DNA of 64,000 bases from Catajapyx aquilonaris (Eukaryota). Shown in pieces: positions 41 to 48,157 of the stretch. Made by a program: the position numbers and the translations under genes. The stretch lies in NCBI GenBank assembly GCA_000934665.2, contig KZ538018.1:62001-126000 (forward strand), in the 5' to 3' direction. The notes under the pieces were generated by a model. It was not told where the DNA came from and did not search any database. It saw nothing but the letters and a program-made list of their open reading frames with translations. Numbering within the stretch: position 1 is the stretch's first letter; each line of letters opens with the position of its first letter.

Positions 41-61
41 ATGGAGGAACTTGTGCAAGAG
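41..61 (+). CDS. Candidate alternative first coding micro-exon: MEELVQE
   Basis: TCAGTC initiator-like motif at 11-16, strong start context aaagATGg, and GAG|gtaggg donor in phase 0. Short, so chance cannot be excluded. Confidence 0.35.
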
Positions 62-1766
62 GTAGGGCTTATTTTAAAGATCAATTGTTATTGTAAGACA
101 ACAGATTGTATTGATGCTGTATAGTACAGCTCGTGTTCTGTAGTAGTTACTCTGCTAATAAATTCCAGTCAAGTTCTGAGTGTGACTCTAACAGCGACAA
201 CAGAGTGTGGAGCCCAAACGGCCCAAAATCCTCGTTTAAACGCCCAATAATTGTCGTTTAATTAGTCATAAATATCTTTCCGGGTCTTTTGCGTTAAGGA
301 ACGAGGCATATAAGGGGGCAGTAAAATTTAATACTTTACTCTCCCCGAGAATCCGGATTCGTTCTGTGGCAACAAAAACAGGGAGCTTTTTATGACGCTT
401 GATGTAAACGGGCTGAACGGAGAAAATTAACATGTTTAAAAAAAAGGCAAAGCGACGCCTCGTTGAAGTGCAAAAAAAAACCCTTCCGGGATTTTTCGAG
501 GATAAAAGGCGGAGGTTTATTACACCCACACCCTGGCAGAAATTAAATGCCGCTTCAACTTCTTTGTTGTGAAGAGTGTGCCGAGGAGAATATACATTTT
601 TAGTCATTATTACTCCAGAATAAAACTGATTTTTTTTAGTACTTCAAATAATGTAATAATTGACATAGACATAGAATTTATTAGTGTTGCTGGCTGCATT
701 TTGTTAATATTATGACAGCATGACAAATGGAAGCAGACACGACAATATTTTTGTTTAGAAAACTTATAACACACATGCTTTCATGTCTTACACATGTCAT
801 GACATAAAAGGGCGTGCACATAATATCTTACGAGTCTAGAAAGTATATGAATTTTAAAAATATGCTAAACTTAAAAAAAAGCGAAATTTGCTTTCATCAC
901 CAGATTAGATTTTATAACAATACATTTTCCAAGTACATAACAGAACTACGCTTGTCTTACAACTGACTCGAAATCCGAAAAATTTGGACAACGGCTCTAG
1001 TTGAAGATAAGGAGGCGGGCATAAACCCCTTGCGATAAATTCCTACAAGTTGTTTGAACGCCATGAAAAAGTAATTTCCCCAAGTTTCTCCTTTCCCCTT
1101 TGCTCGGTACGTAGTAAAACTCGGTGCAAACCTGATGGTGCGGCGCATTTCCCACCCGGATAATAATAATTAATCCGGGTTCTGGTTAGGAAGCCCTGGA
1201 GTCCCGGACACGTGGCGTGCTGTATATATAGGGGTGCTGGGGAAGAAACTAACAGAGCTAGACTAGAGAGTAGGGGTCCTCTCTCTCTCTCCCCTGATGC
1301 TGTAGCTTGCATCGTGAGGGTCTAATGGTCTCGCACGCAGACTCCCGTGGTCATTGTCGTAATGACGGGGGGCCAGCGTAACACCCCAGCCCAATTGTGA
1401 GCGGGGGTTTGTTTGGATTGGCTCATTTCACGCGCCTCGAGCAGCGGACCTACTAACATAACTTTGCCACACCACCCCAGGTGCCTCTGCCCCCGGAGGA
1501 AAACCCAAACACCGAGAGGCACAGTCTGCGTTGGGTTCAGATGGGACCCATCCCCCACTCAAATATAAGGGAAACTTTGTAATGAACGCACTTTAATTAA
1601 AACGGGCTTGCTAATGGGTACGAATAAGTGAAAGAAAAAGGTGACAAAATAGTTTTACAAGCGCACCGAAGTTGGCGCAGCGTGCACGGTTGGCATTAAC
1701 AATGAGCGCTACACTTATTTCCAACGCTACGTTTGGAGGAGAACAAAATGGAGAGTAGGCTCTTGG

Positions 1767-2087
1767 AAGAGAGTCGACAACATGTGACGTCACGTCCTCT
1801 GTGATTGGCTGTAGTAATTATTGTGGACTGTCTACGTGTACTATGGCCTATGGGGGCCGTCATATTGCGTTTGCTAGGGAAATAGTGGCCGGCTGTGACG
1901 TCACGGTCGACTGCGATTGGCTGGAGTAGTATATGCCTTCTGGCTACAGTCAGTCCGTGACGTCACAGCCGGCCACATTTTCCATGGAAACTCAAGATGG
2001 CGGCCTCCATAGACACATAAAAGCACGTAATAAATATTACTCCAGCCAATCAGAGACGACATGACGTCAAAAGTTGTCGACTCTCTT
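1767..2087. mobile_element. Foldback/MITE-like element with outer and inner inverted repeats
   Basis: Outer arms AAGAGAGTCGACAAC..TGACGTCA..GATTGGCTG.AGTAAT are mirrored at ~2035-2087. Inner arms 1848-1906 and 1955-2012 are imperfect reverse complements (CTATGG.GGCCG.CAT.TTG.GTTT...GTGGCCGGCTGTGACGTCACGG). Confidence 0.75.
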
Positions 2088-2967
2088 ACTCGAGGCTCTC
2101 TAGAACAAAATGGCAGACGTTTGCAACGTTGCCAAGGCTCTCAGAGGCTACGAGTGAGTGGGAGATGCGCGAATGTGGGTGCGCACTCGAACTCGTAAAA
2201 AAAATCATCAATAGTAAATTTTCTTGCTCGTTTTTCTTAAAATTACCCTCGTTTAAAGGATTGGTCTCGGTTACACATAGTTGAGCGAGAAAATGGATAA
2301 CATCCACTTGGAGCGCTGCAATTCCTTGGCCGATTCGAGCCCTCTGATCATTCCAATCTCCAGATTGCTTTTGCATGCCTTAACGTGCCTTATTCGCACG
2401 CCCCCCCTTACTTGTAATAACCGGGATCAGCTCTGTCGCTGGAGCCACATGAGGGCAATTTATTAACCGCCGATCAGGAGGAGGAGGGGTGTTGAATCAT
2501 ACCCCCACATAGTATACTACCCCCTCTGTTCGTAGGGAAAACGCAATATATACTTGGAGGTATCCTAACCTGACTCATTGTGACATTAAGGGATGGGTGA
2601 TCTTGGGGAGAGCCAAGCAACGTTGCCTTTACAAATCACAAGGCGATCCACTGCCATTTTGTAAAATTACATGTGACGTCACTTTATTGCCTGTTATTGA
2701 AGGTTGCTTATAGTAACGACGTGGTGACGTCACTTCTAACTTATGTTGAACAATCTGCGGAGTGTATAGTTTAGCCATGCAAATCAATGGCAACTGTGTG
2801 CAATCTTAAACGATTTTTGCACATCCCTCTTCGGTGTATGAGATCGCGCCCCAGTTCGCCATTGTGTCTTCCACGCGAGTGCCGATGTTTAATTAATCCA
2901 TCTGAGTAGAATGGGGAGGGGTGGGGGCAGGGGTCACACGAGGAGGAAGGTGTGAGTCACAAGATGG

Positions 2968-3120
2968 ATGGGCAAATGTGTGGAGGAATCTCTGATACTG
3001 GATGATGGGATGGGGGACAACCCATTTTCGAAGAGCCAGTTGGACGTGGAAGGTCTGCTCGGGACGTACCAGTGGGAAATGGAGCAGTGGAGCATACGTT
3101 TTTGGGGTCTTCATCATCAG
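2968..3120 (+). CDS. Candidate alternative first coding exon: MGKCVEESLILDDGMGDNPFSKSQLDVEGLLGTYQWEMEQWSIRFWGLHHQ
   Basis: 51 open codons from ATG to CAG|gtagga (phase 0). An out-of-frame ATG at 2964 weakens the call. Confidence 0.3.
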
Positions 3121-3389
3121 GTAGGACAAATTGGGCGTGACTCGTTGCTCACACTTTCAACTGTGGGTTGGCGTGACGGAAAACAAAAGTTTGAGAGAGC
3201 TCACGGCCTGTGGACAAGTTGTCGAGATTTGGGGCGGCACTGGTAACGGGCAGTTACCTCTCTGAACACACCCCTTTTACTTGGAGGAGGTCCAGCAGCC
3301 AGCCCCAGAAGGTCAGTGTTTCCTCTGCTCGCACACCGGGAAGGAGGTGTTTTCGGTGAGAAACTCGTGCCCTCGGAAGTGAGAGAATC

Positions 3390-3857
3390 ATGCTGGTGGA
3401 AGTGAATCGCAATGTGGATACAAACGATAACAAGAGATCCGGACTACCGATGCTGCTGGTGGACTGGGATTCCCCATCGGCATATACCGGCACTGTGAAG
3501 CGAAGACCAGTGAATAACCCCGAAGTGTCGCGATTGCCTCAGATCCGTCGCGTCATCACGGGAACTCCCAATCGATGCTGCGGGAATTCCCCGGTTAACT
3601 CCCGTCGGATGATTCGGACTGACCGCGCTGCTGCTGCAAACGAAGCGGCCGCAATCAGTACGAAGCGCACGTGCGAGGCATCCGATATAAGACCTGCAGC
3701 ATCATCAGAGAATAAGAAGAGATCATCAGAATTCCCTGTGAGCCATCGGAACCTGTCGCAGCTTCCTCCAAAGAAGCCGTGTTCCAGCTTCCAGAGCTCG
3801 TCATCCTCAGAAGGTTGCATGGTTGGGATTGAGTCCGCGTCTCCGGTCCGGAAGCAG
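3390..3857 (+). CDS. Candidate alternative first coding exon of navigator (156 aa, S/R/P-rich, ending ...SPVRKQ); a second in-frame donor at 3926 would give 179 aa ending ...STGKEKE
   Basis: Longest ORF in the window (3390-4142). In-frame upstream stop at 3357, start context aatcATG, GC-richer than its flanks. Strong donor CAG|gtgagc after 3857 and GAG|gtgaga after 3926, both phase 0. Confidence 0.5.
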
Positions 3858-6800
3858 GTGAGCGTGGCGGACATTCTGGACGAACTAGATGGACTCTCGG
3901 AAATATCAACTGGAAAGGAAAAGGAGGTGAGAGCAATTCCGATGTGTACTGTACATCAGTGCATATACCCCCATGCTGTGGGTCGTTTAGACGGTTTCCA
4001 GCAGCCACCCTGGAATCTCAGCAGGGAATCCTTTTTTCCGTTCCGCCCATTAGGTCAGAAAAGAAACGGGGTCTGGAACATATTACAAGACTACGAGGGA
4101 GTGGGATATACGAATCAGAAGAAAAAAAAACAGGTTCTATAAATTTGTTCACCTCTTCGTCGAGCATGTTTCGTTGCGCGCTTGGACATGAGACAGGATG
4201 TCTCTATAAGGAGGTGGACCCCTTCCTGTGATGTAAATCGGACTGGCTTGAGTGGTCACGGAATTGCTTGGAGGAAGAACGGGGAAGGAAACTCATGTCA
4301 ACAGCAGACGGCACTTGTATATGGTATGGTACTCATCAGATTAATTACACGGCAGGGTGGGCAAAGAAATGTGTTTTAGATTTGCAAGTCAAGTTGGGAA
4401 GTGAAAAGGATCGATTTTTTTTTTCTCTTTCAAATATTATTTTTCCATCAGAGTAACTTGCCAAATGCACAGTGTACCAGTCGAAAATTTTGAGCGTACT
4501 TACTGTTCTTGGAAAAAAATTATTTAATTTTCTCATACCAATTAGGCTCGGAATTTTATCTACAACAATCTATGAGACTTGCCGGAATGTAATAGCGTGA
4601 TATTAAAATGTAAACATGAGGAAGCAGAGTTTTCTTCTGCATTCACATTCTCAAACTCACTTTTTTTTTACACGTAATAATAATTTGCATTGCTTGGGAA
4701 ATCACATTTAATTGGGATTCCATCCTCGCGTTATACAAGCCATGCACAAGCAGCCAAGCGAGAGCAACTCTGCAGCATTTTTATGGACAACAAAAGTTTT
4801 TCGAGACGCGCTTTTAGAGGCGCTAATTTAGATTTTTGTCAGTTTATTTGCCTACGAGTACCTCGCATAAAAAGATTCTCTTCGGTGATGTCACTTTGTT
4901 TTGTTCAGCTGACAATTTTGTGTTTGTTGGTGACCACAAATATTTTTTTTTCGATGCTGCCTGCGACCAACATTCCCATACACATTCCGTTCCTTCCTGA
5001 GAGACAACGTTATCTTCTCCAATATCCATCAAGGGCTCCTCCCACCTGAAACATTCTTCAATTCAATTCCCTGGCGCCATTTCCGAACAAAACTCACGCG
5101 TCGCACGCCAGTCCACGTAATTGTACCGAGGGGCGGAAGCTTCCGACCCTCACGAAAAGCCTAATGGCGTTACCACCATCCAAATGATATTAGGCCCCCT
5201 TCTCTCTCTAGGTCCGCAACCGACATTTGTCGATTACGTGCCCAACCCTTTATGTAACTTTGCTATATATAAAAAAAATGAGCGGACAGTAAAAATCGGT
5301 GTCTGAATACGCTGCGGAAATATTTCAAACCAAGGACGGATAATTGTTAATTTCCGGTCGTTTCCCACACGTTGCGATGGATCCGATAGCGCTTCGGTTC
5401 GAAACAAATTGGGCGAGATAAAAAAAGAATGCGGAAGGATTTTTTTAAACCCGTGGAATTTTTAGGGGGTTCAAAGTGCGTGTTCAGTGCGTGGTAATGT
5501 CATATAAGTCGAGTCCTTACGCAAGAGGAACTAAAGGAATGAATAAATTGCTCCCAAAAGGTGATCCCACCGAGCCCGTGGCTATATATCCATCTGGGTG
5601 GATACGATTAATTCGTGGATTTGTCAGAGTGTGAGGATTTATGAGACATGGGCACGAGTGGGAATCCAGTTGCGATCAGAAGTGCTCTGGAATCGAAAGC
5701 ACAGCAGGAGGTATGAAGGAGGTTTAGGAAAATTATTTTTCCTGGAAGAGCTTTTTTTTACTTTCATTCCATGGATTCTTGTGTAATAGTCTTCAGGTAG
5801 TTTTTTTTTCTGGGTGAGTTGAAAGTCTGGGTATTACTATTCAATGTGATTAATTTCCCGGTTAAAGCACTTAGATCCTCACGAGCCCTATGCATAGCTA
5901 CCGTATATATACCGGCAGTGTTTGGTTTTCATTAGCGTTTCCTTTTGATGAATACGCCATGGAAGTCTTAGCAAATATCCGGGTGCGGTTTCAAAGGGGT
6001 TTTCATCCGCTCGTCGTAAAAATAGGACTAAATTGCTGTATGCATGAGCTTTTTTTTTAAAAAAAAGCTGCTCTTATAATCTTTATTGAAGAAACAGGCT
6101 TTTGGCTTATACAGAAAATGAAATTAGAGGTCTGAAGAGTAGAGACTTGGACCACCCTGTACAACCGCTCAATGTCTCGTCACGAACTTGCCAACCGCAG
6201 TTAAGCCAGACATCGGTTAAGCAGTTCTTATCCTTTGCCTGCGGTTTTGTCTCGGAAGAGTCTGAGCACCAACCCTCCCCCAATCTCCCCAAGCAACAGG
6301 AGAAGACAGGACAAATATGCCCAAAAGCCTGATGGTGTATCGAACGCTCTTGAAACTTTGTCGGGTCCTCTTACAAGAAGAGACTCTGTGTGTGTGTGCC
6401 TTTGAGATACTGTCGTCCCTTCCTTCGCATTCCAAGAGGAAGCAAAGCTAAACACAAAGCCCCGGGGGGACACTTAATTAAACACCGTCTGGGAGAATTA
6501 GAACAGGTTGGGAGTCTGGGGGCTTCAAAGAGGTCGTAACCTGCTGTATAGAGACCCAGGGAAAATTTTCTTCAGGAAGTAATTCTAGCCAAGTCCATTT
6601 TTCTACCCTCTGTTTATAGTGGGGGGGAGGACCTCAGGTAATTTGCTTCTGGTCGGATCATCCCCCTTTTTTGGTTGGGATCAGGGGGGGGGGGGGGGGN
6701 GGGGTATAGTTTTAATTTTCACGTCCGTCATTTTGTCAGGTTGGGAGAGTTGTTTTTCCCGCGGCTGCACAAACGGGGCACATGTGCGGTTGAGGGGTTC

Positions 6801-9228: not shown

Positions 9229-9345
9229 TTTTATCCTCTTAGTTAGACTTCCCCGTGCACAAGCCAGATAAAAGTGTGGCCCTGAAAATCCAGGATAAAG
9301 TTTCTGCCTGTTATTAATATTTATCCTCGTAGTTAGACTACCCGT
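9229..9345 (+). repeat. Short direct repeat (two ~27-bp copies)
   Basis: TTTATCCTCTTAGTTAGACTTCCCCGT and TTTATCCTCGTAGTTAGACTACCCGT, about 90 bp apart. Confidence 0.6.
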
Positions 9346-14451: not shown

Positions 14452-16764
14452 AAGTTCAATGTCACCTGCCTGTAGGCTTGACCTTGGTGGATATGTACTG
14501 TACCCGGATAACCGGGAGTGGCAGGTCACCAAAAGTTGGCCATGAAACCAATGCATGATCCGCTAAATTCGAATCCAAAATCCGTTTGTCGCTATCTGTT
14601 GCGATTTGAGCCCTGATACCTGTCCACCGACAGACGGACAAAGCTGTTTTATAGGGATTTGTTTCGATGAGAGAAAAAAAAGTCTAAAACTAAGAACATC
14701 ACAAGATATTCAGGAACTGTATCATATATCTAGGTGACCTTTTACTGGCTACAATTTAGGAAATGTGGCTATCAATTTTTTTCTCATAAATATGAATATG
14801 GCCATGGCAGCGTTGGTAATGGATATTTGAGATGCTTGGACCTTCCAAAACCGGTCTGGTCTGATCTCACATGAATCTCAATTTGGACCTAACTTGTGAG
14901 AGCCTATTCCCGATTGGTCTCGCACGAAATCTGCCATAAAAGTCTTCGTTCCTCCCCACCCCATCTTTTCAATGGCATCAATAGTGTCTACGTGGCCTTC
15001 CCTTTTTTACTTCATACCTCTATAGTACGTATATATACCCCCCCTGCCAACCCACCCACCTAACACACAATCCACTCACCCCATATTTTTTTTATTGGCG
15101 CCTTTTCTTGTGATGACCATCAGCCATAGCTGGGGTCTCATATTGGAAATGGCCGAGTCTGGACGCAAGGAGAGGAAGTGAGGTCCACAATGGCCAGGGG
15201 AGTCCCCAGGGAAAAACCTATCTTCAAAAAAAATGTTCAGTCGAGGGGAACATGGAATCATATTGGGGGGGAGCTTTAATCCAAGATGCTGTAATACGTT
15301 TGTGAGGAAGTTTTGACCATTCTAGGCTCTCTAAAAGGAAAGAATTTCGAGTGTGAGGCTGGATGTTAAATAATTTCTGACGTGACATATTATGGGCATA
15401 TTTCACACCCTTTTTTATATACAACTTCATGGCCAAATGTCGTGACAATGAAAGAAATTGGCGGTCCTTTACACTCAACTCCTTCCATGGTAACAAGTCG
15501 TATAGTGGGCGATGTTTGTTCCACTCTCTCCCATCGGATATCGAAGCACATAACTCCTTTTTGGAGCAAGTCCAAATCTCGTAAGACTGTCTGAAGAAAT
15601 CCGGTTCCGGTTAGCGTAGGCAATTTCGTCCTTGGGAAGCCTCGGCGACAAAATTCTATTTTGCTGTGAGGTTGGTCTAATATGTATACAAAAGAGTGAG
15701 AAAGAGAGAGAGAGAAAAAAATGAACAGGTTTCCATGTCTCCATACTTCCGAATAGGTAGCATGCATTGTGACAAAAGAGAAATTAGATTAGATGATCTG
15801 TATATTATTCCGGGGAGGGTGCCCACGCTGCAGGTACATTTCTCACGCACTTTCCTTTTTGATCAATTCGTTCCGGCGCTTTTTTTGATCGCGTGCTTCC
15901 TTCTCCTGAGAGGTGGTTTCTGTTGTCATCTTACCTTCTTAAGTGTAATCGAAAAAATACTGTAAAATCAGTAGTATACAGATGATTCATGTCCAATTTC
16001 ATACAGCTTTAATTAGTCTCATTATGTACATTTTTTTTAAATGGGTGGAATTTAATGTTCTGTGCCAACCCAACCCTCGTCTTTCCCCTAGAAAGAATGG
16101 GGAAAAATACAGGACAGTACAGCAGGGGAAAAGGGGGTTTAGATGACGTGTCGCATAGTGGAACGTGATGTTCGGTTTTCAAATGTCACAGAGTCTCCCC
16201 TCCCATACTCTCAGTCTGATGTGTCGTGTCACATCCTCCCCAGCTTCTGTTTTTTTGCAGCTCCACGTGATTCATTCCTTGGTTAAAACAATTATTATCA
16301 TCATTTAGACTTGCATCCAAATCATCCAGGGCCTCATAATTTTCCTCCTTGGCTGCGATGGGGGAAGAGTCATTTCACACAACGATTTGAGAGGGGGGGG
16401 GGGCATGAATTCGTAAACCCTTTTTTTGGGGGATGGACGGCCCCACCCTTTTGCATTTATCTGCTGGCTTCCGATGCAAAATTCGATGCGCTTTGTATTC
16501 AGGGACCGCTCAACTAAGCGATGCACATCTGCATTGAGTGACGGGGTTAGATAGACACTGAAATGTCAGCGAATTTTATTCCATACTTTTCATCCTATAG
16601 ATAAGGATGGACCCAATTGTGTACGCTGATTTGTCAACATTTGGCCCTCTGTAGACATTTTGTTGTCATAAGGTTATGCAAAAATTTTTCCGAGTCATCA
16701 ACTTTTCCTGCTCGAGTCATTTATCCTTATCGTCGCTGGCCGGTTGGCCACTATAGAGGACTCA

Positions 16765-16912
16765 GGGCCAGTTGCACCGACCTCAGTATATCTTAGAACC
16801 TCGGGTATATCAAGAATTGCCATAGCAATCATTGTTGGTCAACAATGATTGCTATGGCAATTCTTGATATACCCGAGGTTCTAAGATATACTGAGGTCGG
16901 TGCAACTGGCCC
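16765..16912. mobile_element. Perfect palindromic MITE, PIF/Harbinger (Tourist)-like
   Basis: 16765-16837 is the exact reverse complement of 16840-16912 (73-bp arms, 2-nt spacer GT). Termini are GGGCC...GGCCC, flanked on both sides by TCA (16762-16764 and 16913-16915), a 3-bp TSD of the TNA type. Confidence 0.8.
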
Positions 16913-19900
16913 TCAATTAGCAAATGTCATTTTCCGAGTGTGCTTCGTGATGTCTCATCCCTTTATGACCCTGAAAAAAAACGGAGCTATAGGAACATAA
17001 AAGTGGCTCGGAGAAGAAAAAAAAAAGTTCCATTGTTGGGTGCGTATGCAAATGAAAAATATGCATCGGGGGGGAAAAGAGATGTGAGTAAAAAAAAATA
17101 TTCATTGGGCCGGATGTGGGCTGGAGATGATATTAAATCATGATCCCTTTTTTATGGGGGTATATATAGGAAGGGATCATCCGTTCAATCGACGGAATAG
17201 AAACGAGTCTGCATGGATGATTGTGGAAAGAAATCAATGATGGGGAAAGAGGTTGATTAGCCCGAGTGTCTTCTTTATTCTTGATGGGCCTCTTCTTGCA
17301 GAAAATTGCTGTTTCGCTACAAATTTCAATGATAACATAAATTGTTAAAGCCCATTAGCATGTAATAGCTCAATTACAAATTAATGGAAAATTGTGCTTT
17401 CATGTAACTGGGTGTAAGTCGCGTGTACTTTTTTTTAAAGAAAAAAATAAGATCCGGATACATAATGCAAATTTAAGCCTAAAAACCACCTAGGATGCTT
17501 AACTAATAAGATAGATTAACTTCTCCCACGCATGCAGTGAATAATCGGGGGCGCATACCCACCATCTAGATGGTAGTAATTTAACTCCACGGATCAAATT
17601 AAGAAAATGAAGCAAAATACGAGCATGGTTAACGCCCATTAGGTTCTGCCTTACGGGAAGTCCCACATTTTAGCTTTATTTCGACCATATATTAAACCAG
17701 CCAGTGTGTCTCTTCTTTTCTCTTTTTTCCTTCTTTTTTTGGTGGGGGATGTAGGCTACCTACAGTGTTAGGTCTAAAGCACCACCCCGCCACACAACCC
17801 CTCGTGACGCTGTTTGTCATTCTGGGTCTCGAATTATCATTCCGCTCATCAAGCTTGGGGCCGCACATCCCATTCCCAGCCCCCACTTTCTGTTGTGTTC
17901 AAGCCTTTTTGAACGTAATTTGGTTAGGGGGAACCTTCGCCTCCGCTCTTCTCTCGCTTGGTCTGTACTATACATGGGAACACACCTCCGGATTTTGAGG
18001 CCTTCTCTTGGTTTATATACATTTTGCCACACCGACACATCTAAAAATGACTTAAATGACACAAAATTCGGCAATATTGTGTGTATAATTGGTATATAAA
18101 ATAAAAATTGTAATTGTGTACATATTAATCACATATGCATTTTTCACTTATCAATATTTAATTTTTTTTAAACGAGTACAGACACATAGTCATTTTTCAG
18201 TCAAAATCTTCAACTTTTAAAGACAGTATGCTAGCTAATGAGATTCAGAACAAACCGCTATACCTACAATCCAAATTGTACCATCTGTCAGATCAGATTT
18301 AGTCGTCCATTTATTTCCATTGCTCCGTATAGATTCTCCCTTCACCCGAATCGAATTCAATGAAGGGATTTGCTTATTGCAGGCTTCAATTCCGACTGAG
18401 TTATTCGGTTAGAGAGGACGGCGGCGGATCCATCTTGACTCATGTTATTACAGGCCGTAATTAAGGTATGGAAAAGGGGACTGTAGAGGCAAAAATATCT
18501 TGACAGACACACACAAAAAAAATAGTATAAGATGCGTGACAATCCGAAACCGTGGTTTTGACACGTCGGATTAACAATCCATCAAGAGTGCCATAAAACT
18601 CAGGCTCGTGCGGGTCATTGCATGCGCCCATAAGTATAGTATTGATGCCCATAAAATGTACTGAATTATTAGTTAGGCAGGATATATTAATTGGTAAATT
18701 GGTATCGGGGGGTAGTGTTCGGTGCAAGGCTGCTATAAAAATAATTCGATGATATTTCTGGAAGCCATAATGACCTGTGGGGGTCATGGTGGCCACCAGG
18801 AGGTCCCCACACTTTTTTTTCACCCCCTCTTTTCCTCATGCATGTAAACCGAACAATCTTTCTTTTATAATTAGCTTGGCTGCAGGTGGGTGCTCCATGG
18901 GAGGTGCATGCCATCCATTTTCTTTAATATCCACCATGTAAAATCTGAATTAACTGCGTTTTGGATGGTGAAGACACTACATTTAACTTTGTAAATGATA
19001 AAAACTTCTGATTGTAATTCGTATGCTTAATGCGTCCCCATTTAATCTGGCGGGATGGCAACAGGAAGTGCGGTAATGTCTAGGCAGGCGCCGTCTGGAC
19101 ACTGGCCGTTTTGTTACGCTTTGACCCCTACGAGAATCGCGTTGACCCGGCACGTCTCTTTCGGCAAAGTAACGATCCGCTTCGAAATGGCCGAAGGATT
19201 GTGGCACAATACCCTTCTAATGTGTGTAAAAAAAAACATATGAGTCCGCACCCATGTTCTGAGTCAGTAGGACGTTACCTTGACCTTCGAGAGTACATCG
19301 CACTTACACTGTTTTACCGCTATTTTTTTTTAATTAGGTGCCAGCAGCTACCGTGGGATTGGGTCAGGGACGTACAAATTAGGGCTTGTCGTGTGTGTAC
19401 GGAGGTGGGTTCCGTAGAAACACAGGACTTCGTGGGAGTTGGAAAAAGTACAAGGTGGGCGACTGATTCAGCTTTATTGTGGAGCTTATGAGATCACGTT
19501 CCCTGGAGGCGAACGTGCGTTGGCATTCAATTGCATACCTGCGTGTATTGCGTTGTCAACACCCAAGAGGTTGAAACTTTGTCCCGTTTGTTGCGGGGGG
19601 GATGAGGGCACTGGTTTTGTCGATTGTCGCCCCATGTTGACAGGGTATACACAAGGTAGGATCAAGAGAAGGATATGGTTCTCCGGAGGGGGAAGAAACC
19701 TGCACGTGTCTCCGTAAAGCCTGTTTGTTTGACCAAAAGCGGTGTCTTTCATGTTGGGGAGGTTTATCTGGACCAGATTTTGGGATATACACTTTTGTGG
19801 AAGTTTCAACCAAGTGAATTATTCAAGACTTGCTGGTCAGATTTATGTAGCCACCCCAAAAAAGTGTGAATCACCATCATAAGAAATTGGTCAAAAAATG

Positions 19901-21353
19901 CAGCCAAACAATGCCTTTAGGAGGAGCCTTGGAGGAATAGGGGTCATAATTGTATAATGAGCATCAAGGGCGGGTATCACACAATTGAGAAAATACCAAC
20001 GGAAAAAGGGTGGAGCATTTTCTCTTGGGTGTGTGCTTTGGGAAGGAACCCCACCACTTGAAAATATTCCATTAAGAGACCTCACTATGCGATCATAATT
20101 TTTAGTCCTGGACGCCATAAAGCTATGTGGGTGTAGTCTGCAGTCTGGGTCATTGGAATGATGACTTGGGTGACCTTTTTTTCTCTGGGTAGACTGATGT
20201 AGTGTCCTTGGAGTCCCCCTAATTCAATTCCAAGTCATCCCCGCGTTTCCATTATGCTCTCTCACAATAAAATTCCGCGGGAACTCCACATTCATTTTGA
20301 GGGGGTGGAAAAAAGGGGGGGGGGGTTTACTGTGTGTAATTTTAATCAGCTGGGGCGCGTCAGTTATGAAACTAAAAGTGCAGAATCTGCATATCAATTG
20401 CAAAATTTTATTGCGCGAGGTGCAGTAATTGCGCAAAAACAGGTTGACACTGCCTGCCTGTTAGCATGCATAACGAGCGATTCTATGCGGTGTAAATTCC
20501 GGCACTGACCCCTCGGAGATTTTTTTTAAACCGTACGTTCAAATTACGGTTTCAACCCCTGCCTCTCCCACCGATACTGTGTTTGTAACGTTCGTGAAAA
20601 AAAAGTCACGCACAGTTACACTGAGAAAGACCTACCTTTTGAAAAATGCACGTCATGCCCAACTTACAAACCAACTTTCCGCAGTTTTTCCTTCACGAAA
20701 CACAATTACATAAATACATTTGTCTTAATGCCACTTCTGAGCGTGACGTCAGGCTCGACAGATTCCCCCCTTGCCCCTATGTCACGGCCCGTCACGCTGT
20801 CAACTCCCAACAATTCTCAGGATAATTCAATAAGGAATTTACAGGTACGACTATTGGGTTGACTTTTATTTTTAATCAATCAGAATTAATCAGAAATGCT
20901 ACATATTTTTTTTGTAATGAAACACAAAGCGAATAAAATTCTATACAAAATGAATAAATTAAATTAAATACCTAATATTCATATTTATACCAAGCAGCCT
21001 ACAGTTGGCGAAATAAAATAGCAGGAAAAATAATGAATAAGTAAATAAGCAAAATGAAACGGTAGGCAATACAGGAATCAATGAAACCACGAATAAGCCC
21101 CCAAATAAACCCCCGCAAGATAACGGTATCCGAGTCCTCTCTCAAAGGGGGGCAACAATGGGCCTCCCCCCCTTTTTGATCCATGTAACTGACACGCCTT
21201 GAAGAAACCGCACCTTCCAGCCCTTTTCTTTGTAGTCGACTACACCTGTACCTTCTAGGTCTGATCGATCCCATTTTCCCTCCACTCAAACTATTCCGGA
21301 ATGCACCGTTGTGTATGTATTGTTGTCCTGGTAAGACAGGTCGTGACCTTCTG

Positions 21354-21389
21354 CCCCCCCCCCCCCCNNNNNNNNNNNNNNCCCCCCCC
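21354..21389. other. Assembly gap (14 N) inside a poly-C tract
   Basis: Ns at 21368-21381 are flanked by C runs. Single Ns at 6700 and 29942 also sit in G/C homopolymers. Confidence 0.95.
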
Positions 21390-21419
21390 TCTTGCCTTTT
21401 TTTTTGATGTGATCTGAGT

Positions 21420-21600
21420 CTGTGGAAGGTGCGCCTCAGCCACAGTGTGCCGCGATTGGCGCGCGCGGTCGCGGCCAGCAAATGAATGGTCGCGCTGGGA
21501 AGGCGGCGCCCGGAATGAAAACCGTGGAGCGGAGGGGGTTGCTTGTGCTGTGCTGCGTGTAGTCGGCGGTGAATCCAAGGCTGGACCGGACGGGTCGGAA
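21420..21600 (+). promoter_or_regulatory. CpG/GC-rich promoter-like patch upstream of candidate exon 21664
   Basis: Dense CpG (gcgcgcgcggtcgcggcc), a reverse CCAAT box (gattgg at ~21454) and GC-rich tracts, next to an AT-rich stretch at 20860-21060. Confidence 0.4.
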
Positions 21601-21663
21601 AAAAGAGGAAAGAAGGTTTATCCGGGATGTGACCACAGTGTATTTCCACGTGTGTCATGTGTG

Positions 21664-21792
21664 ATGTATCGACACATGTTCCATGCCGGTGGGGGACAAC
21701 AGCATAGGAGTAGTTGTGAAGGGGTCGGAGGTGGTGGTGGGAGTGGGGGAATGTTATGGAAGTGGGACAGGAATAATATCAAGACCAAGCAG
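21664..21792 (+). CDS. Candidate alternative first coding exon of navigator: MYRHMFHAGGGQQHRSSCEGVGGGGGSGGMLWKWDRNNIKTKQ
   Basis: 43 open codons with in-frame ATGs at 21664, 21676 and 21751, ending at AAGCAG|gtacgt (phase 0). Lies directly downstream of a CpG-rich promoter-like patch. Confidence 0.5.
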
Positions 21793-21921
21793 GTACGTGC
21801 TTTTGACCCTTTGCAATTTTGATTAATGACAAGTGACCGGTGTGTGATTGCGAATTATGTCGGTGTCAATCAGACCACGTGAAGAGCGATTTTTTTGCAC
21901 GGTACATACTCGAAAGAGTGC

Positions 21922-36874: not shown

Positions 36875-37150
36875 CAAATATCCATATTTTCATTATATGT
36901 AACAAAATAAATATCAGTATATTCATTGTATGTAACAAATATCATTATTTTTCATACATAATAAATATCGATATTTTCATACATATACTAAATATTGATA
37001 TTTTCAGACAATAAATATTGATATTTTCAGACATAATAAATATCGATATTTTTAGAAATCATATATCGATATTTTTATGCTTGTAACAAATATCGATGTT
37101 TTCGGATATGCAGCGAATATCGATATTTTCAGATCTATGTCGACATTTTC
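36875..37150. repeat. Degenerate ~25-bp tandem repeat with core AAATATCGATATTTTC
   Basis: About ten diverged units. Similar units also lie left of the MITE (36587-36692). Confidence 0.7.
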
Positions 37151-39308: not shown

Positions 39309-39371
39309 ATGGACAGGTCAGGAAGCTGCAGGGAGTCGCCGAATTTGCTTACGGAGGTGATATCAGAAGAG
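39309..39371 (+). CDS. Candidate alternative first coding exon: MDRSGSCRESPNLLTEVISEE
   Basis: Start context gtcATGg, 21 open codons, GAG|gtaaag donor in phase 0. Confidence 0.3.
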
Positions 39372-40095
39372 GTAAAGAACCGGACGAATTATATTTACAA
39401 TTGAGCTCAAAAACACCCACGAATATCGATATGTATCGATAAGGCAGGGCGTTCACCCATGAATATCGATATATCGTGGGATATTTGAACATAATGTTAT
39501 ATAGCATTATTTTTCTGGCTCTTCAGCACCACCTACGGCGTACAGAGTCTAATTTTTTTTATCTCCTTCAGCTTCCTTCCAGCTCGAGGCGGTCCTCCAG
39601 ACCAAATCTCTTCCTCACGACGACGGATCCCAAAATGCAAAATAATTGGTCGGCAACGTGGCAGGGTGTGACGAAAGGAATAGTTTGGTTAGTTTATTCC
39701 CAGCTGAGAGTGGTGCACACGTGGGCTATCTTTAGAAGGAAGGAACGGGCACCCCCCTCCCCCCCTACCAAAAACTTTCAGAGCTTTAGAATAAGGGGTG
39801 GGGGCGATGTTGTAGTCGAGGTTTGGAAGCTGCATCAGGAGCATGGGGCTAGACTTTGCTGCCGGATAATTTCCCCCCCTCCACCTCTGCTATACATGGA
39901 AAACTGTTAGTGTTGATGGGAGGGTGGACTCAGACCTTGTCACCCCTGAGGCTGGATTTGCGGATGGGATTTGCGGTGGTGTCGTTTCGTCTGATTGCGG
40001 CTCGTTTCACAGCGCGGAACGTGTCGTCCGGACCAAAGTGCGAACCCTAGTATATATATTTTTTTGTGTGTGTGTATCTAGGGGTGTTTGACGTT

Positions 40096-40191
40096 ATGGC
40101 GTGTATCCGTGCGGTCAGGTCGGAGGGATCCGCCGATGATCTTCGGAAGACTGCGACTGGAGCCACCAAATCGCAGAAGAATATCATACAG
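40096..40191 (+). CDS. sick: Probable first coding exon of navigator: MACIRAVRSEGSADDLRKTATGATKSQKNIIQ
   Basis: 32 open codons from ATG to a CAG|gtagat donor. Phase 0, so it reads directly into IYTDW at 48040. Preceded by a CpG-rich leader-like stretch (39950-40050). Nearest plausible upstream candidate to the CH exon. Confidence 0.6.
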
Positions 40192-43100
40192 GTAGATCAA
40201 CAACTTTAGAAAGAAAAAAATATTGTTGAAATACTGAATATAATTGCAGCATTACATGTTGTACGTACTTAATGTTTGCTGACTGACACGTGCGAGGAAA
40301 AAGAGACCGGGAAATAGATTGAGGAACCTTTTTTTTCAGAGGGGGCTTGTACAAAAACAGCGAAAGGAAATAGGTTGGGGGTCAATGGTGCAGACGTTTT
40401 CTTTTGGCTTTGGAGAAACTGCGAGGGTTATATTTTCAGAGGGGTTTTGAGAACTAAAGAAGCTTTTTTACCTTCCGTGGTTTAATTTGCTTGATGTGTG
40501 GTCGTTTCAGGTGGTTTTGTTAGCCAAAAAAAAGACTGCATTTGCCTAAATCCGGATGGTTCTATATACAAGTCAAAGAGATGTTTTCCTCTTGTATGTA
40601 CTGCTCTGGGGAAAAAACATCTGAAGACTCAAAGCTGCTTCTTGGCTCTTCGCCTGTTTTCAGACACTCTTTATGGCGGTTTTAAGGGTGATGAAAAGGT
40701 ATGGCGACAATTTGCGCAATTTGTAGGTCTCATCGACCATGGAACCTGATCTGCGTCGTTATGCTCCTATTCCACTGTACCCCCCAACTGCGTAATGAAA
40801 ACAGCGTTTCGAAATCGACAATGGAGTACCATACCGTATTACACATACTTGATCACTCAGGGACAATGGTGGAGGGATGGGGAGGGGGTGTAATTGGAGT
40901 CATTTGTCCGACCATTCGCAACGTGGTCAATACTCCCAGGAAAATACCGGCCAAAATAATATTGATAAATTGCACGTATTCGGTTACTATCGGCTATTAA
41001 ACAAGCCCGTATTGGTTCTCCTATACCTCCTGTGACTAATGGCAAAACTAACATCAATATCCGCGCATGCAAATTACTTCATATGACCTCATAAATCAAT
41101 TGATAGCCACCAAAAATGGACACGTTCCCAATAAGTCGATACTTCCCCGGTTATTTCCACGTGATGAAACATACTGCGATGAAAGACAAGGCTATTAATC
41201 AGATTTTTAAAAACTCCGGTAATAATCGGTAATGTAACGTGTAATTTTAGGGCTGATCTTTCCTACGCGACGACGTGGTGGGTGGCGCGGGGGGAAGTTC
41301 AGAGAGCGCAACGAACGTTATTGTGGCTTTTCCACGGCAAGAAGTTACTCTTGTGCTTTTCAGAGTTTTTTTAACGTTGCGTTTACGCTATAGAGGTTAC
41401 ATGGTAATCAGTTATGATTACCAGAGTATGTAGGTGGGCTCCTTCTTTCGTGTTTAAGGAGCATGGCAGGGGTCTAAGGAGGAATATCTTCATACTTCTT
41501 CCTTAGAGGTTTATGGAGCTGGCAGGGAGTCCCCTTTTGTTGGCGACAGATGCTCAGCATGCAACCCAGAAGAGATTTACTGGAGCCTTCCTCCCCCGTA
41601 GCTTATTACACATTTTGAACCGCCATGGCCAATTAGGACGAATTTAGTTTACGGTGCAGTATTGACACGTGGAGATATCCTCATGGCAGACCTCCGTTTT
41701 TTTTTTTTTTAAAGGACCACATTCTCCGCAGGTTGGAGCTTTTTTTGGGGGGTGTGATGGCTGGAAGAGGGAAGGGATAGCCTGGAATTTTTCCCGGGCG
41801 GCAGGTCAAATGGATCGTAAAGTCAGCTCAGTGCCTTGAGATCAGAGGCAATCTCCAGTCGGTTATCGGAATAGGGAAGGACCCCAAGGGTTTGGCAGTC
41901 AGCTTGGCGCAAACTGGAGTCTATGGGCGGCCCTGTGGTCCGAAGCCTTTATGGCCCGTTGCAAAGGGTGGGCCATTTCGGCGATATTTTCCAATCGGAG
42001 CTCCTTTGATGAGATTAAGGCCGCGGCCGTCTCCGGACCGACTTGAATCGGAATTGAGGCCCAGGACTCTTAAAAGGCATCGTTTCCTCGCTCCAGAAAC
42101 GACACTCGTTTAGTCCAGGAAACTTCCCAATGTATAGGTTTTAAAAAATCGGCATTTTAACAAAACGAGCTCATAATTTAGAACGGACTTGTTCCGGGAG
42201 TTAAAAAAGTAACAAAAAATCAGAGCAACCGTACCTCTCAAAACCGCGGTCCTGGAAACTACAGGGGGGTGACAGAACTCTGTCGTCATCTGCTCCCGCG
42301 AGCCTCTTCTGACTGACAGATCAAGGAAGTAATTTGCACGTTTATTAGTTTATTTTCTGAGAAGAGACGAGGAGGAATAAGTTAGGTGAAGGGGAGATGG
42401 TGTACACTCCCTTATACTCTCCTCCGAGAGGGGGAAGTTCCTCTCTCTAGTAGATGGCGGACCAAGAACTCGATAACGAGGCCAATCACATCCAGTGTCA
42501 AGGGCTCGTCTGGGTGCGGATTCATGGGGGGGACATTTCTGGCTTTACGACGTGGTTTAACGCAAATGTTTGGCACTGCATACGTAAATGCTCGTTCGAA
42601 AATCCGGATTGCAAATAACCAGGAAGGAAATGTCAAAAGGGAGGGAAATGGGCTATGTTATTGCAAAATGTTTTATTTTAATACCTCCGCTGGATAGAAT
42701 CACCCTGTACGTGATCAAACAACATTATTTTAGAGCTACCAGCACTTACTTTGTTTTTAAAAAGGTGCGTGACTGTACAGTGTACATGCATTATCGACTA
42801 TTAGATGTAGGAAAGCTTATTAGCGAAGGTTAATTTGACAACAATTGGGACCACTGTTGTGATACACTGGTTCCTTGTGTCCTTTGCGTGCAACTTAACC
42901 TTTGGTGATAAACTTGAAGGAACGGTGTACGTCTCAAGAAAAGTGTGTTTCAGATAACACTGAATTGCGAACATTTTTCAGCCCACATGCAACCAACAGC
43001 ATGCAATTGCAATTTTTTTTTAAATATGGAAGTGAGGCGATGGAAGTGTCTTTTTTCTGCAAGGTTGTAATTAACTTCACATTAATAAAATGAAATTTTA

Positions 43101-46100
43101 AAGAGTGAGTCAGCATCTCACACATCGTTATAAGAAAAGGTCTTTTTGGCGCTGAATAAAAACGTGTCTTAGTCACTTGGATGTCGCCCACACGACAGCG
43201 GCTGGATGATGTTACGCCCCCTTTGGGTCGTTGGCTCAAAATTACGTGTCTGGGAGTTTACGCTGGCTTCAAACCCAGAGACCCGGGTAGGTTCTGGCAC
43301 ATGGTCACCATCATCACCTTCCGATTTGGAAACTGTTCCGATCTTCTTCTCCCCCACTGTCTTTTTCGAAGGGGCAAAGGCCTAGAGACCTTCGAGGTGA
43401 AGCTAAATATAATGCAGCTTTTTTGGCTTGTAATGTCACAAGGAGAATTGACACAGTAACCCTACCTTTGTTTGTTTCTTAAGCACTGTTTTTTTTTCGA
43501 TTCCTAGATATAACAGAGATAACGCGCCAAGAGGTCATACGTGACGTGCCAGGTATTTTGAAATTTAACTCTGCCCTTTTTTTGTTATCTGTGGATATGG
43601 ATGTGGCATGTTTATTTACAGAAATTTGATGTTATTATTACTCCCATTATAGAAATATTTTCAAATGCTTTACACATATCAGACTAACCGTGGGCATAAA
43701 CTGTGAGTATGTTCTATGCATATAACCGGAGTATGCGATAATCCGAATTTCTGTGCTGGAGGCGAGAGTGTATAACAAATGGACCGAAAATGGATGGTGG
43801 ATTTGCCCCACTTCCAGCAGCCCTGATTTCCAGACACTGGCAACCGAGCATTACGAAAGTAAATCAGCAGGAAAAGCAGGAAATATGACAGTGACTTTGT
43901 TCACTACATGAAAAAAGTGCGTCTTTGAGTCTCACCCTAACGGAGGTCTATGATTAACGCCTTCTTTTTAGAGGGGGGTTGCTTGATTCATAGACTGGCA
44001 ACCCTCGTGCTATTTGAGGGTTATAGGAAGGGAGGGAAGACTGCGCAAAAAAAAAATCCAATTCCCCCGGATTTGAAGGTGGAGCCATGTGTCAAGTGAG
44101 CTAAGGAGCTCCAAAGTCTTCTCGCAGACTCTTTATTGGCAGGTAGGATTGTCCGGAGAGCCACCTTTCCTTAAATTAAACTTGTGTTGGTCCTGAAATG
44201 GTATGAATCGCTCTGGAGCGGCTGTGACTGGGAAGCGGATTTTATCCAGTCGAATTTTGTCCACCTTGTGAGCTCATCTTCACATCAAAAGTTGGACAGC
44301 AAAGTGAAAAGTTCGTATTAGCAAACTTTTTACTCACCCTGCCAATATGTGTTTCGGGAAATGCCTCTTGCAGTGTGTGTCCCCCCTCCCCTTTTTTCGG
44401 AGAGAAGAAGCGCGTGTGTCCCATGTCAGCCTTGTAATAATATGTAAATTACCCCCCATTGGCCACGTGGGGTTTGATGGGGGAATTCGCAACCTATGGG
44501 CTCCAACTTTGCGATGAAAAGCTCGGTAGCAGGAAGAGCCGGCTCCCGAAAAAAGTGGGAAGCAAAAATTGCATATGTTTTCACAACACGCTGGTGTTGG
44601 CCATTATTTTTGACGTATCGCATTACTCCGGACTTGAAACTACTCGAGTTAATATCTTCCGGTGTTTTTGTGGGGGTTTTCTGGCCTTCACACACAAAAA
44701 AATGTAGGGCCCGGGTGTGAATCATGAATTTAAGGCATATAGAGGGGGGCTACCCTTACAACATGTGCTCACATCTGTGGAGGAATCTTCTCTTAGCGTA
44801 AATATTAGAAGTGAGCCACTCAAAGGGAGGTCACATGAGTGTTTACAACAAACGATTAATGTCTGAACTGGAATTGGGCAGTCATGAGGTATGTTCTGGT
44901 GTCGACTTTAATTCTCATTAACTCTGGAAGGATTTGCGCTAATGTGTAGAATCTCTTTGCATCATTAATGTACTGCTTCTTCAAGTGATGTTATTATAAG
45001 GAGCGTAAGATGACAGGGCTGTGTTTTGCCTCCAACTTTCTACTGTACCAAAGTGTTTCCTCCCGCCCTCTACCACCTAATTAAGCTAATATATTAAGCG
45101 AACGAGAATTTCATTAACGCGTCTGGGCCCATTATTTTTTATATTTTTTTAGCTAGAGGCAAAATTTTGGCTCCTCCACCACATGGCCCTCTCCGAAATC
45201 TAACTGTACCAAGGACAAAACGCCCTGGCTCATTCCCAAAATCCTCGATGGGTAAGCCCCTCAAAATGATTCTTTCTTGCCAGGCCATCGCCCCTGGGCC
45301 TTTCCTATGTAAATATACCAACAATATTCCCCTGGAGGACGTCACGCCGTGTTATAAAGATGAAAACTCTGCCGATAAATTATAAGGGACAAGCGCTAAT
45401 AGTGTATCTCACACGACTTAATCAATGAGTCGGGGGACTGTTAATCACCTGTTTTTTTTTAATGATGTGATTCAGGGAGCCGCACTCTCCAGGTGAAATT
45501 TTTTCGCCTGTGGGTGTGTATATCACTTTGGAAGCTCAACCCTCCGATAATTTGCATGGGAAGTGGCTCGGAAGTTGGGAAGTCGGGTCCGGGTGCGTGG
45601 ATTTATCTCGAAATGTCAGGAACAAAAAAGGAGAGCAAGTCTGATGGGGAAATGGCGTGCTCACCGCCATTGGGTCTGGCAATGTATCACTCGCGACGCG
45701 GCTCGAATAACTCATTGACTTCTTAAAGGACTGCCGGTGAAAATGCCGACGGGGTCATTTAATGTGGAAGGAGGGGTGTCCCCCAAACATTTTTCACCAC
45801 GTGCCGAAAGGTATGAAGAGGGAGAGAGGATTAATCCATGGAGCTTGATTATAGGGTTGAGACGAAGGTTGATATTAATTTTAAACGTTGCTCTTCCTTG
45901 TAGCTCTTGGTTAAGAGAAAACGATTATATGGACTACAAACTGTCTCATATGTACTATAAAAGATAATGAGGTCCTAGCATTGGTCTGAGATTTGGGTAA
46001 TTTGTACACGAATAGCTCAATTCCACAACTTTTCAGCACCAAAATGTCATTATCGCATGTTTAAAAATGGCGGGTAAAAAGGGGGCGTGGCCTAGGGGCG

Positions 46101-48039
46101 CATTCCGACCCATGCCTAACCACAGTGACGTCAGCAGACAGGTGCACCTACTTTACTTGGCTGTCATTCCATTCCGTTGGTATAGGGTCGCCAACAAAGC
46201 AAAGAAAACAAACAAACAAAGCAGCCATCTGCCTCTGCACCGATCGGTTTAGCCACAGTGACGTCAGAGGGCAATACGATACCGTATAATTAATATAATT
46301 TTAAATCGATCATAGTTCGAAAATTAATACTTATATCTTCAAACGAAAAAAACACTAGAATTCATTTTAAAATCATGACGATTTCTTTTACATAGGTTTA
46401 CAGAATGTATAATAGGCTACAACCCATTGTTGCACATTATGCACACCCTGTACAGTGCTGTGATTCAGAAAGTGCACTTTCCTCGCATGTGTGTGTCGTA
46501 CTCCAGCCTCAGTGCTTCCATGAGTATAAGCAAACACCACGATACGTTTGCACAAGTTGGCACATCGTACGCACTTTATTTGCATTGCTGTCCAACCTTT
46601 CTGCCACAAGTCTTTTGCACTAATTTGCTCAGCGGCCATTTGTGTATTGGACATTAACAGTACTTGGAAAACGACGAATTTGTGAAGCAAAATGTTACAA
46701 TTTTTAAAACATAAATTATAGCATATGCATGTTGTTGCCTGTTGGCCAATATTGCACAATTGTGTTTTTAAAGCTGAAATCACATTTTTGTTACTACATT
46801 TGAGCCGCATTTTGGACCCTGTAAACGCCATGCTACCTGCTGGGCTCCAGGGGACATGATCTTCCAGCATCCCCCCCTCTTGTTGCTTTTTTTTTGTTCT
46901 CCAGAAAATAAAGCCAGATTACATTTCTCCAGCGGAAGGAAAAGCCGTGTTTTTGGGGTCCCGGTTGTATAACGCCTGGGGTGCACTTTGTTGCCATGGT
47001 CCAATCCCAGAAAGCCCTGGCAATTTTCTGCCGCCCTGTTTTGTCTCATATGTACGAGACCCCTGGAGTTATTTTCCGCCCCAGTTTGCGCCACATGTCC
47101 ACACGACCCATTTGCAAGCTGGGGCGTCAATATTCATTTTAAAAGTGACAATTGGCACCCTGCTGGGACTCCAAAAAGGGGGGGAGTTGAAGCATGCGTG
47201 GATATAATACGTGATTCTTAATTTTTGAATCGTGTTTTTTTTTCGATTAGGAAGAATCGATTTTGAAGCGTACCAAAAAAATAGGGGTTGAGATTTTGTC
47301 GCGCACAATCAGTTTGATGGGGGGTGCTTGTCAAATGCCTCGTAAGGTGGAGGTGACGGATGTCATGTGAGACGTACGGGTCGGGAAAATAAAATTGAAA
47401 AGAATGAAAGGTAAAAAAAAAAAAAAGATGGATGGAGTTGGATGCGGTACTGACATGTTTTTTTATACATATTCTGCACAGGAATAGCGCCAGTGAGCTC
47501 AAGCACACTTGATTGGATGGTCCGATCAATCCTGCCAAACTCTAATGTATTTTTAACCCCTTTGGCACTGACGCAATTAAGATATGATGTATGTACCCAT
47601 TTCTCAAAAGCAAATCTCTGAATAATAATTATGCGTGGTATATCATGTAACTGCATTGTTGACTTTTTGAATGTAAAATATGTGGCTAACCTAACTCAAT
47701 TTCGACCAGGTCTTCACATATTGCGACTCATGTTATTATTGTATTGCAGGGGAATTCACTTACTCATCATGTACCGTATGTTATGTTTCATAAGTTGATT
47801 GTGAAGGCCATTAGACACATTTGTCAACCGAATGGTTTTGTGGCCGGTCTACCCCCTCGATCCCATCCATTATTACATTACCAGAGGTCATTATAGTGTC
47901 AGCCCTCATCGGCTGCAATATTATATATTGGAAGGGAAGATCCCCCCTCTCTTTAATAATTTCATTGTTGTCAAGGGCGTCATACTGAGCGTCATTGAAA
48001 GCATTAAACTCATTGTTTTCTGTTCTTGTTCCTTTCCAG

Positions 48040-48157
48040 ATATACACTGATTGGGCCAATCATTACCTGGAGAAGGCTCGTTGTAAGCGCCACATCCAGG
48101 ATTTGCAAGCTGACGTCACAGACGGAGTTCTGCTGGCCGATCTCATCGAAGCCGTCA
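48040..48157 (+). CDS. sick: Neuron navigator (sickie/unc-53/NAV2-like) coding exon, first part of CH domain: IYTDWANHYLEKARCKRHIQDLQADVTDGVLLADLIEAV
   Basis: The translation matches the navigator CH-domain signature IYTDWANHYL...DLQxDVTDGVLLA. Polypyrimidine acceptor ttttctgttcttgttcctttccag|ATA (phase 0) and donor A|gtaagt (phase 1). 118 nt. Confidence 0.95.

Follow-up and report, generated by a model that had tools for sequence, protein, structure and literature searches.

Which sequences supply the N-terminus of a protein whose CH domain is encoded from an exon that has no start codon? This question is raised by the window analyzed here, a stretch of 64,000 nucleotides from Catajapyx aquilonaris (assembly GCA_000934665.2, contig KZ538018.1, positions 62,001 to 126,000 of the forward strand), which includes a CH-domain exon of a navigator/sickie gene that starts at position 48040 of the window. 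The first-pass annotation, made from the letters of the sequence, proposed that at least six unrelated ATG-initiated segments, spread over 40 kb upstream, serve as alternative first exons of this gene. The analysis described below points to a smaller set. It appears fairly likely, from comparison with other navigators, that the exon at 48040 serves as a constant second coding exon, upstream of which there are two, probably three, alternative first coding exons, namely exons A and B, which are backed by homology, and the probable candidate exon C (Table 1). Exons A and B each match first coding exons that are located directly before the same CH exon elsewhere, so that more than one first exon is expected here.

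The CH exon and the upstream candidates

The constant exon (IYTDWANHYLEKARCKRHIQDLQADVTDGVLLADLIEAV, preceded by ctgttcttgttcctttccag) follows a strong polypyrimidine tract and an AG, opens with IYTDWANHYL, contains no ATG, and is followed by GTAAGT. The open reading frame (ORF) of this exon matches the Pfam CH profile (PF00307) with E 6.3e-7 and 30 bits, compared with a cut-off of 26. A protein search started with the CH exon identifies 168 of 195 candidates at E<=0.001, the best of them with 90% identity and none identical, and all the named matches are called navigator or sickie. In six full-length arthropod navigators, the counterpart is 73-85% identical (tblastn E 1e-16 to 3e-19). The next CH-domain exon is recovered by tblastn with five of the six queries (Cherax, Armadillidium, Daphnia, Rhodnius, and Folsomia, with E 8e-5 to 2e-3), and the Tachypleus query (P0197) gives no match at 52134-52186. 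The two consecutive CH exons indicate that the window, as judged by sequence comparison, is the 5' part of an arthropod navigator gene (sickie/NAV2-like) on the plus strand, the introns of which range from 4 to more than 8 kb. The original assignment to the navigator/sickie family is thus borne out by the PF00307 match, by the named relatives, and by the two consecutive exons matching arthropod navigators, and the sequence agrees with the description of the exon at 48040 as a constant phase-0 acceptor exon that lacks an ATG. A Pfam scan of 85 window ORFs (84 of at least 95 codons and the 65-codon ORF containing the CH exon) yields the CH exon as the sole match, and neither a transposon nor a second gene is detected in it.

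The first-pass list consists of seven segments at six loci (41-61, 2968-3120, 3390-3857, 3390-3926, 21664-21792, 39309-39371, and 40096-40191). The sequence confirms that each of them runs from an ATG at the position given to an AG/GT, in a whole number of codons and free of stops. These properties are common in this DNA: on the plus strand of positions 1-48039, an in-frame ATG before a stop is found at 57 of the 182 AG/GT sites (31%) and at 28 of the 83 sites that fit the stricter AG/GTR. The list comprises 7 of these 57 qualifying sites. With 31% of donor-like sites qualifying, the array as listed is no more than chance yields, so that each candidate needs separate support. Three of the six loci (40096-40191, 21751-21792, and 3390-3857/3926) stand out by tests that are independent of the ATG-to-donor property, two of them (A and B) by homology and one (C) by intrinsic statistics alone; the other three are backed by neither. 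The claim of at least six first exons accordingly holds for two homology-backed exons and, as a candidate, for a third; for 41-61, 2968-3120, and 39309-39371, there is nothing beyond the property shared by 31% of the sites. It had been cautioned that the short candidates could be due to chance. The reverse is observed, with 40096-40191 and the end of 21664-21792 being the best supported and the long candidate C the least certain as an exon of the navigator gene.

Exons A and B

Exon A is similar from its methionine to its last residue to the N-terminus of the Cherax quadricarinatus navigator (P0168; tblastn E 9.9e-7) and, with E 3.5e-6, to those of Eriocheir (P0013), Scylla (P0014), and Macrobrachium (P0160). 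A MAFFT alignment joins it with 23 arthropod N-termini from chelicerates, a millipede, crustaceans, and hexapods. In nearly all of the 24 aligned sequences, C-[IL]-R is found near the start (with K in Macrobrachium and Pollicipes, and M in Neocloeon), and most of them end in K-[SN]-I-x-Q. Generally, in all four arthropod subphyla, there are pre-CH N-termini that start with M-(x)-A-C-[IL]-R and end with K-[SN]-I-x-Q at the junction to the CH exon (hereinafter MACIR-type). Exon A contains C-[IL]-R within its first 8 residues and the K-[SN]-I-x-Q end, followed by a phase-0 donor with the CH exon next; a stop is located 5 codons past the donor. By this comparison, exon A is the orthologous MACIR-type first coding exon common to arthropods.

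The closest relatives of exon A are those of malacostracans, a similarity that by itself would suggest a crustacean as the probable source. In the sickie/navigator genes of decapods and isopods (Cherax X2 P0168, Eriocheir, Scylla, Macrobrachium, and Armadillidium P0165), the same MACIR...K-[SN]-I-x-Q exon is joined in phase 0 to IYTDWANHYL, and the CH exon is 73-83% identical to that of the window. Among the members listed, MACIR is their only pre-CH start, in addition to internal starts that lack the CH domain, whereas the window adds exon B and candidate C.

Two features are located upstream of exon A. A T-rich/GT-repeat tract (tttttttgtgtgtgtgtatctag) in 40051-40095 ends in an AG at 40080-40081, shortly before the ATG, so that exon A may be internal and follow an untranslated first exon farther upstream. 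An acceptor at this AG would be in phase 1, and a frame arriving from a phase-0 donor would therefore not be continued by it. In addition, the palindrome TATCGATA occurs in seven exact copies in 36966-37125 and 39424-39471, compared with 0.67 expected (none of 100 shuffles reaches 7). The copies are grouped at distances of 0.6 and 3 kb on the 5' side of exon A, and the first cluster is a degenerate tandem array of approximately 25-bp units (AATATCGATATTTTCA...) in very AT-rich DNA. TATCGATA equals the Drosophila DRE core-promoter/insulator word; the clusters could represent a promoter or insulator module, or else a repeat element.

Exon B corresponds to the last 14 residues of the segment 21664-21792. 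It is detected by tblastn with the pigeon Nav2 (E 0.002) and a frog NAV2 isoform (E 0.01), and it matches pre-CH N-termini from a sawshark (P0243/P0449), a frog (P0205), a pigeon (P0231), a zebra finch (P0236), and oysters (P0404/P0417). In the sawshark, frog, pigeon, and zebra finch, the alternative NAV2 start is M-L-W-R-[WC]-E-x-[ND]-N-x-x-M-K-L, located directly before the CH exon; in oysters (Crassostrea virginica and Saccostrea), it is M-S-V-K-L-W-R-M-E-S-N-N-S-x-I-L-K. Exon B shows the L-W-[RK]-x-[ED]-x-N-N pattern shared by these starts, 14 residues from the junction, with a phase-0 donor, upstream of the CH exon. The distance from the motif to the junction is the same in the window, vertebrates, and oysters, and, in the comparison with the sawshark sequence MLWRWEQNNATMKL, 7 of the 14 residues are identical and the length from methionine to junction is equal.

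The significance of this match was assessed by an anchored scan in which each plus-strand GT that follows 14 stop-free codons was compared, without gaps and with BLOSUM62, to the last 14 residues of known pre-CH N-termini. Across 1527 sites and 149 tails, the top hit is site 21792, with a score of 48, and the runner-up scores 34; the maxima of the controls are 33 for the minus strand (1753 sites) and 26 for the downstream plus strand (510 sites). When the 48 kb were shuffled with dinucleotides preserved, 48 was not reached in any of 1165 trials, the maximum being 43. Much of the score comes from two tryptophans, and the surrounding sequence is rich in G and T; therefore, the local 150 nucleotides were shuffled as well: with any end position allowed, 3 of 36084 shuffles reach 48. 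When the length of the tails was varied (8, 10, 14, and 20 residues), 21792 and 40191 were the only sites of the window to stand out. Site 42764 (score 34-35) was rejected, given that it matches solely an ORF that reads through an intron.

Several observations weigh against exon B. A HMMER profile of 14 columns, built from six known members, gives 5.0 bits and E 3.6 on the ORF of exon B, which is not significant with or without entropy weighting; HMMER is judged to be underpowered for 14 columns, and this outcome is still counted as a non-confirmation. A word search of proteins with 21700-21819 returned one candidate and none that scored, so that no arthropod counterpart was found, and the B-type start is present in none of the arthropod isoform sets, among the members listed. 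Upstream of the methionine at 21751, which is aligned with the annotated sawshark start, two ATGs share its frame (21664 and 21676) and three do not (21627, 21657, and 21683); translation may start either at this methionine or at one of the two in-frame ATGs.

These null results, together with the lack of homologues of candidate C, are what would be expected if there were a single first coding exon, with exon A alone spliced to 48040, exon B a chance match or an unused relic, and candidate C unrelated to the navigator gene. This explanation appears improbable given that the anchored match of exon B exceeds all the whole-region shuffles and all the real-sequence controls. Furthermore, exon B starts with methionine, ends exactly at a phase-0 GT donor, and coincides with a peak of GC content, and a relic would not be expected to retain the ORF, the methionine, and the donor together. 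Thus, exon B is, with high probability, a real and ancient alternative first coding exon, the start of which, by this comparison, is constrained.

Candidate C and the remaining segments

Candidate C opens the longest ORF of the window, with 260 codons from stop to stop. This length is reached in 1 of 200 shuffles of the whole window, in 5 of 2000 local 3-kb shuffles, and in 3 of 2000 local 1-kb shuffles. The leader before its ATG is the 5th longest of the 1227 gaps between ATGs (mean 52 nucleotides). The GC content of the candidate is 0.55 and the observed/expected CpG ratio is 1.08, falling to 0.47 and 0.78, respectively, after 3857; the two stretches of the window with the highest GC content, which are also its foremost CpG peaks, are 3001-3900, at candidate C, and 21301-21800, at exon B. 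The encoded sequence contains three [ST]x[IL]P motifs (SGLP, SRLP, and SQLP) compared with 0.22 expected (P 0.00085), of which at least SQLP is in a basic, acid-free context. In other navigators, this motif is present in 48 of the 51 distinct long pre-CH N-termini (at least 77 residues) compared with 1 of the 67 short ones. A review describes SxIP motifs in the disordered N-terminal part of navigators as their signature for binding to microtubule plus ends (EB) (PMC9877351). As a lead only, K-R-S-G-L-P of candidate C resembles K-S-G-L-P of vertebrates.

On the opposite side, the number of motifs is a post hoc observation, and a HMMER search finds no homologues of candidate C among 1.84 billion representatives. 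There is no Pfam match and no usable match in the ESM Atlas, and local alignments with 12 long navigator N-termini are not significant (P 0.14-0.79). Moreover, no stop interrupts the frame over the 94 and 71 codons that follow the donors at 3857 and 3926, respectively (P 0.008 and 0.023), which is more in keeping with an unspliced ORF of 250 codons than with an exon that ends at one of these donors. These observations are compatible with an explanation in which exons A and B belong to the navigator gene, and 3390-4139 is either a separate, unspliced, lineage-specific gene for a 250-residue protein or a non-functional frame in a GC-rich island, located upstream of the navigator gene or within its first intron. 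Two further points agree with this explanation, namely that the significance of the ORF length depends on the whole 260 codons and that candidate C resembles neither a navigator N-terminus nor any other protein. It is nevertheless considered rather unlikely, for candidate C is on the navigator strand and has two consensus phase-0 donors (GTGAGC and GTGAGA), the GC content and CpG ratio drop after the first of these, it contains three SxLP motifs (P about 0.001), which characterize the long N-termini before the CH domain in navigators, and no AATAAA was found by eye in 4142-4700. By these features, candidate C is probably a lineage-specific long disordered start with three SxLP (EB1-binding-type) motifs. 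That it represents real coding sequence is likely; its use as a first exon of the navigator gene is given slightly less than an even chance.

The remaining three segments match no known N-terminus in tblastn searches. The segment 41-61 was left out of the 14-codon anchored scan owing to a stop within its 14 upstream codons, and 2968-3120 and 39309-39371 are unremarkable in anchored scans with tails of 8-20 residues. Nothing separates the three from the other 50 chance segments, and they are most likely chance ATG-to-GT stretches. The full array of the first-pass annotation, with at least six unrelated first exons and each of them in use, would find a precedent in oysters, which are annotated with up to 8 pre-CH N-termini, some of only 8-10 residues, so that short, unconserved first exons exist in the family. 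It is nonetheless very improbable considering that the defining property is shared by 31% of AG/GT sites, that these three segments have no known counterparts, and that an out-of-frame ATG precedes the one at 2968 by 4 nucleotides. The preferred reading therefore includes exons A and B and, provisionally, candidate C.

Table 1. Features of the window (all on the plus strand where a strand is given; the slash marks the splice site)
Feature	Position	Strand	Splice sites and phase	Remarks
Candidate MEELVQE	41-61	+		unsupported; at window edge, too short to test
Candidate of 51 residues	2968-3120	+		unsupported; out-of-frame ATG 4 nt upstream, at 2964
ATG-free leader	3079-3389	+		311 nt, before ATG 3390
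Candidate exon C	3390-3857	+	donor cag/GTGAGC, phase 0	156 codons; disordered Ser/Arg/Pro-rich N-terminus
Second donor of candidate C	3926	+	donor gag/GTGAGA, phase 0	
Stop of candidate C frame	4140-4142	+		
Single N	6700 and 29942			
Assembly gap	21368-21381			14 N, C-run flanks; about 370 bp 5' of exon B, inside its GC-rich island
Exon B	21751-21792	+	donor cag/GTACGT, phase 0	short alternative first coding exon MLWKWDRNNIKTKQ, 14 residues
Candidate of 21 residues	39309-39371	+		unsupported
Exon A	40096-40191	+	donor cag/GTAGAT, phase 0	conserved arthropod first coding exon MACIRAVRSEGSADDLRKTATGATKSQKNIIQ
Constant exon	48040-48157	+	phase-0 acceptor, phase-1 donor	first part of navigator CH domain
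Next CH-domain exon	52134-52186	+	acceptor ctag/, donor /gtaagt	53 nt; NQKVPDINRKPKSSSQM after split codon

Alternative starts in other navigators

In other species, 2 to 8 distinct pre-CH N-termini per gene are annotated, and internal starts that lack the CH domain are annotated in many of them; all these isoform sets are annotation models. The largest number is that of Crassostrea virginica, with at least 8 distinct pre-CH N-termini of 8 to 288 residues. Among the members listed, the frog Dendropsophus has 4, and Daphnia magna, Folsomia, and Cloeon have 2 each. The premise that navigators use several starts is therefore substantiated by the annotated sets of oysters, frogs, Daphnia, and springtails. 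The joining of several starts to one CH exon is a family trait that is already annotated and hence not new, to which the window adds two to three starts. The proposed architecture of variable first exons is retained for exons A and B on the grounds of homology, in a form smaller than originally suggested. In the review cited above, navigators are described as containing C-terminal coiled coils and an AAA+ domain, with isoforms that alter regions outside the main domains, and isoform J of Sickie is noted to have an extra N-terminal sequence (PMC9877351). Neither an array of first exons before the CH exon nor the cross-phylum motif of exon B is described in the literature found outside subscription journals, and the conservation of exon B across phyla is the noteworthy part of the finding.

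Comparison with individual lineages shows which parts of the arrangement are shared. In vertebrate NAV2 (sawshark P0243/P0449-P0453, frog X5 P0205, pigeon, and zebra finch), the 14-residue L-W-R-[WC]-E-x-[ND]-N start joined to the CH exon coexists with others, including an 86-residue start that contains SGLP and SQIP. The last two residues are K-L in the vertebrate exon and K-Q in exon B, and the long vertebrate start is not alignable with candidate C. In oysters (Crassostrea virginica LOC111103516, Saccostrea, and Magallana), unrelated first exons are likewise joined to the CH exon, among them a B-type exon (MSVKLWRMESNNS...) and long SxIP starts, but the array is larger and there is no MACIR-type start. 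An oyster alternative start, MGSSSSHP... (P0182, P0184, and oyster relatives), fits the N-myristoylation pattern M-G-x-x-x-S and is a possible functional counterpart of the arthropod MACIR start with its Cys3.

Daphnia magna and D. carinata, Folsomia candida, Cloeon, and Neocloeon have two pre-CH starts per gene, one of which is MACIR-like in Daphnia and mayflies. The second start, in contrast to those of the window, is of the ...KYT-x-x-ET-x-[QE] type. This belongs to a second widespread type of start (...EETIK, ...ETIQ, or ...KYT-x-x-ET-x-[QE]) that is found in mussels, scallops, an annelid, a nemertean, a springtail, Daphnia, and mayflies (P0172, P0179, P0298, P0148, P0163, and others). No window site shows a sequence of this type followed by a phase-0 GT; such a start may be located upstream of base 1 of the window.

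At the protocadherin and UGT1A loci, a large number of first exons with separate promoters are likewise spliced to common downstream exons; there, the variable exons are paralogous to one another and cover whole domains. The likeness to the window is in the wiring only, the starts here being short and mutually unrelated.

Taken together, these comparisons are compatible with a scheme in which each first coding exon would be transcribed from its own promoter, and the donors would be spliced to 48040 in a mutually exclusive manner, to yield proteins that differ only ahead of the CH domain. As a hypothesis, the MACIR start could offer Cys3 for lipidation and membrane association, and the long start of candidate C could add EB-binding SxLP motifs and hence plus-end targeting. 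Navigators link actin and microtubule plus ends in axon growth, and their many isoforms are usually taken to be annotation noise.

A more far-reaching and doubtful hypothesis is that a multi-promoter front end of navigators has been kept since the bilaterian ancestor. Under this hypothesis, the L-W-[RK]-x-[ED]-x-N-N exon would be the same in vertebrates, bivalves, and this arthropod, alongside a long disordered SxIP start for plus-end tracking, for which candidate C would stand in this lineage, and a Cys3/lipid-type start (MACIR in arthropods and the MG start in oysters). The promoter chosen would then determine where in the cell this cytoskeletal protein is delivered. If so, a 14-residue exon common to a shark, a frog, birds, oysters, and an arthropod would imply that at least one alternative promoter and N-terminus have been under selection for more than half a billion years, and exon B, if shared in this manner, would be a concrete target for isoform-specific knock-outs. 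For the window itself, the practical outcome is the annotation of credible first exons.

The rest of the window offers few additional features. Its mean GC content is 0.43, as in GC-poor animal DNA, and it contains 16 N in total. A minus-strand ORF at 20999-21778 (259 codons) is open solely by spanning the 14-N gap near exon B. A self-BLAST of the window reveals few repeats overall, none of which includes a base of any candidate. The candidate peptides are mutually unrelated and thus do not form a set of paralogous variable exons. The strongest intra-window repeats are a near-perfect palindrome of 150 bp at 16764-16913 (98.7%) and an imperfect one of 350 bp at 1752-2101 (74%), both of which resemble small intronic inverted-repeat elements. 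A third peak of GC content (0.54-0.57) at 1101-1600, with a TATA-like TGTATATATAGG near 1220-1232 and no notable ATG-to-donor segment, may mark a further start site or an untranslated first exon.

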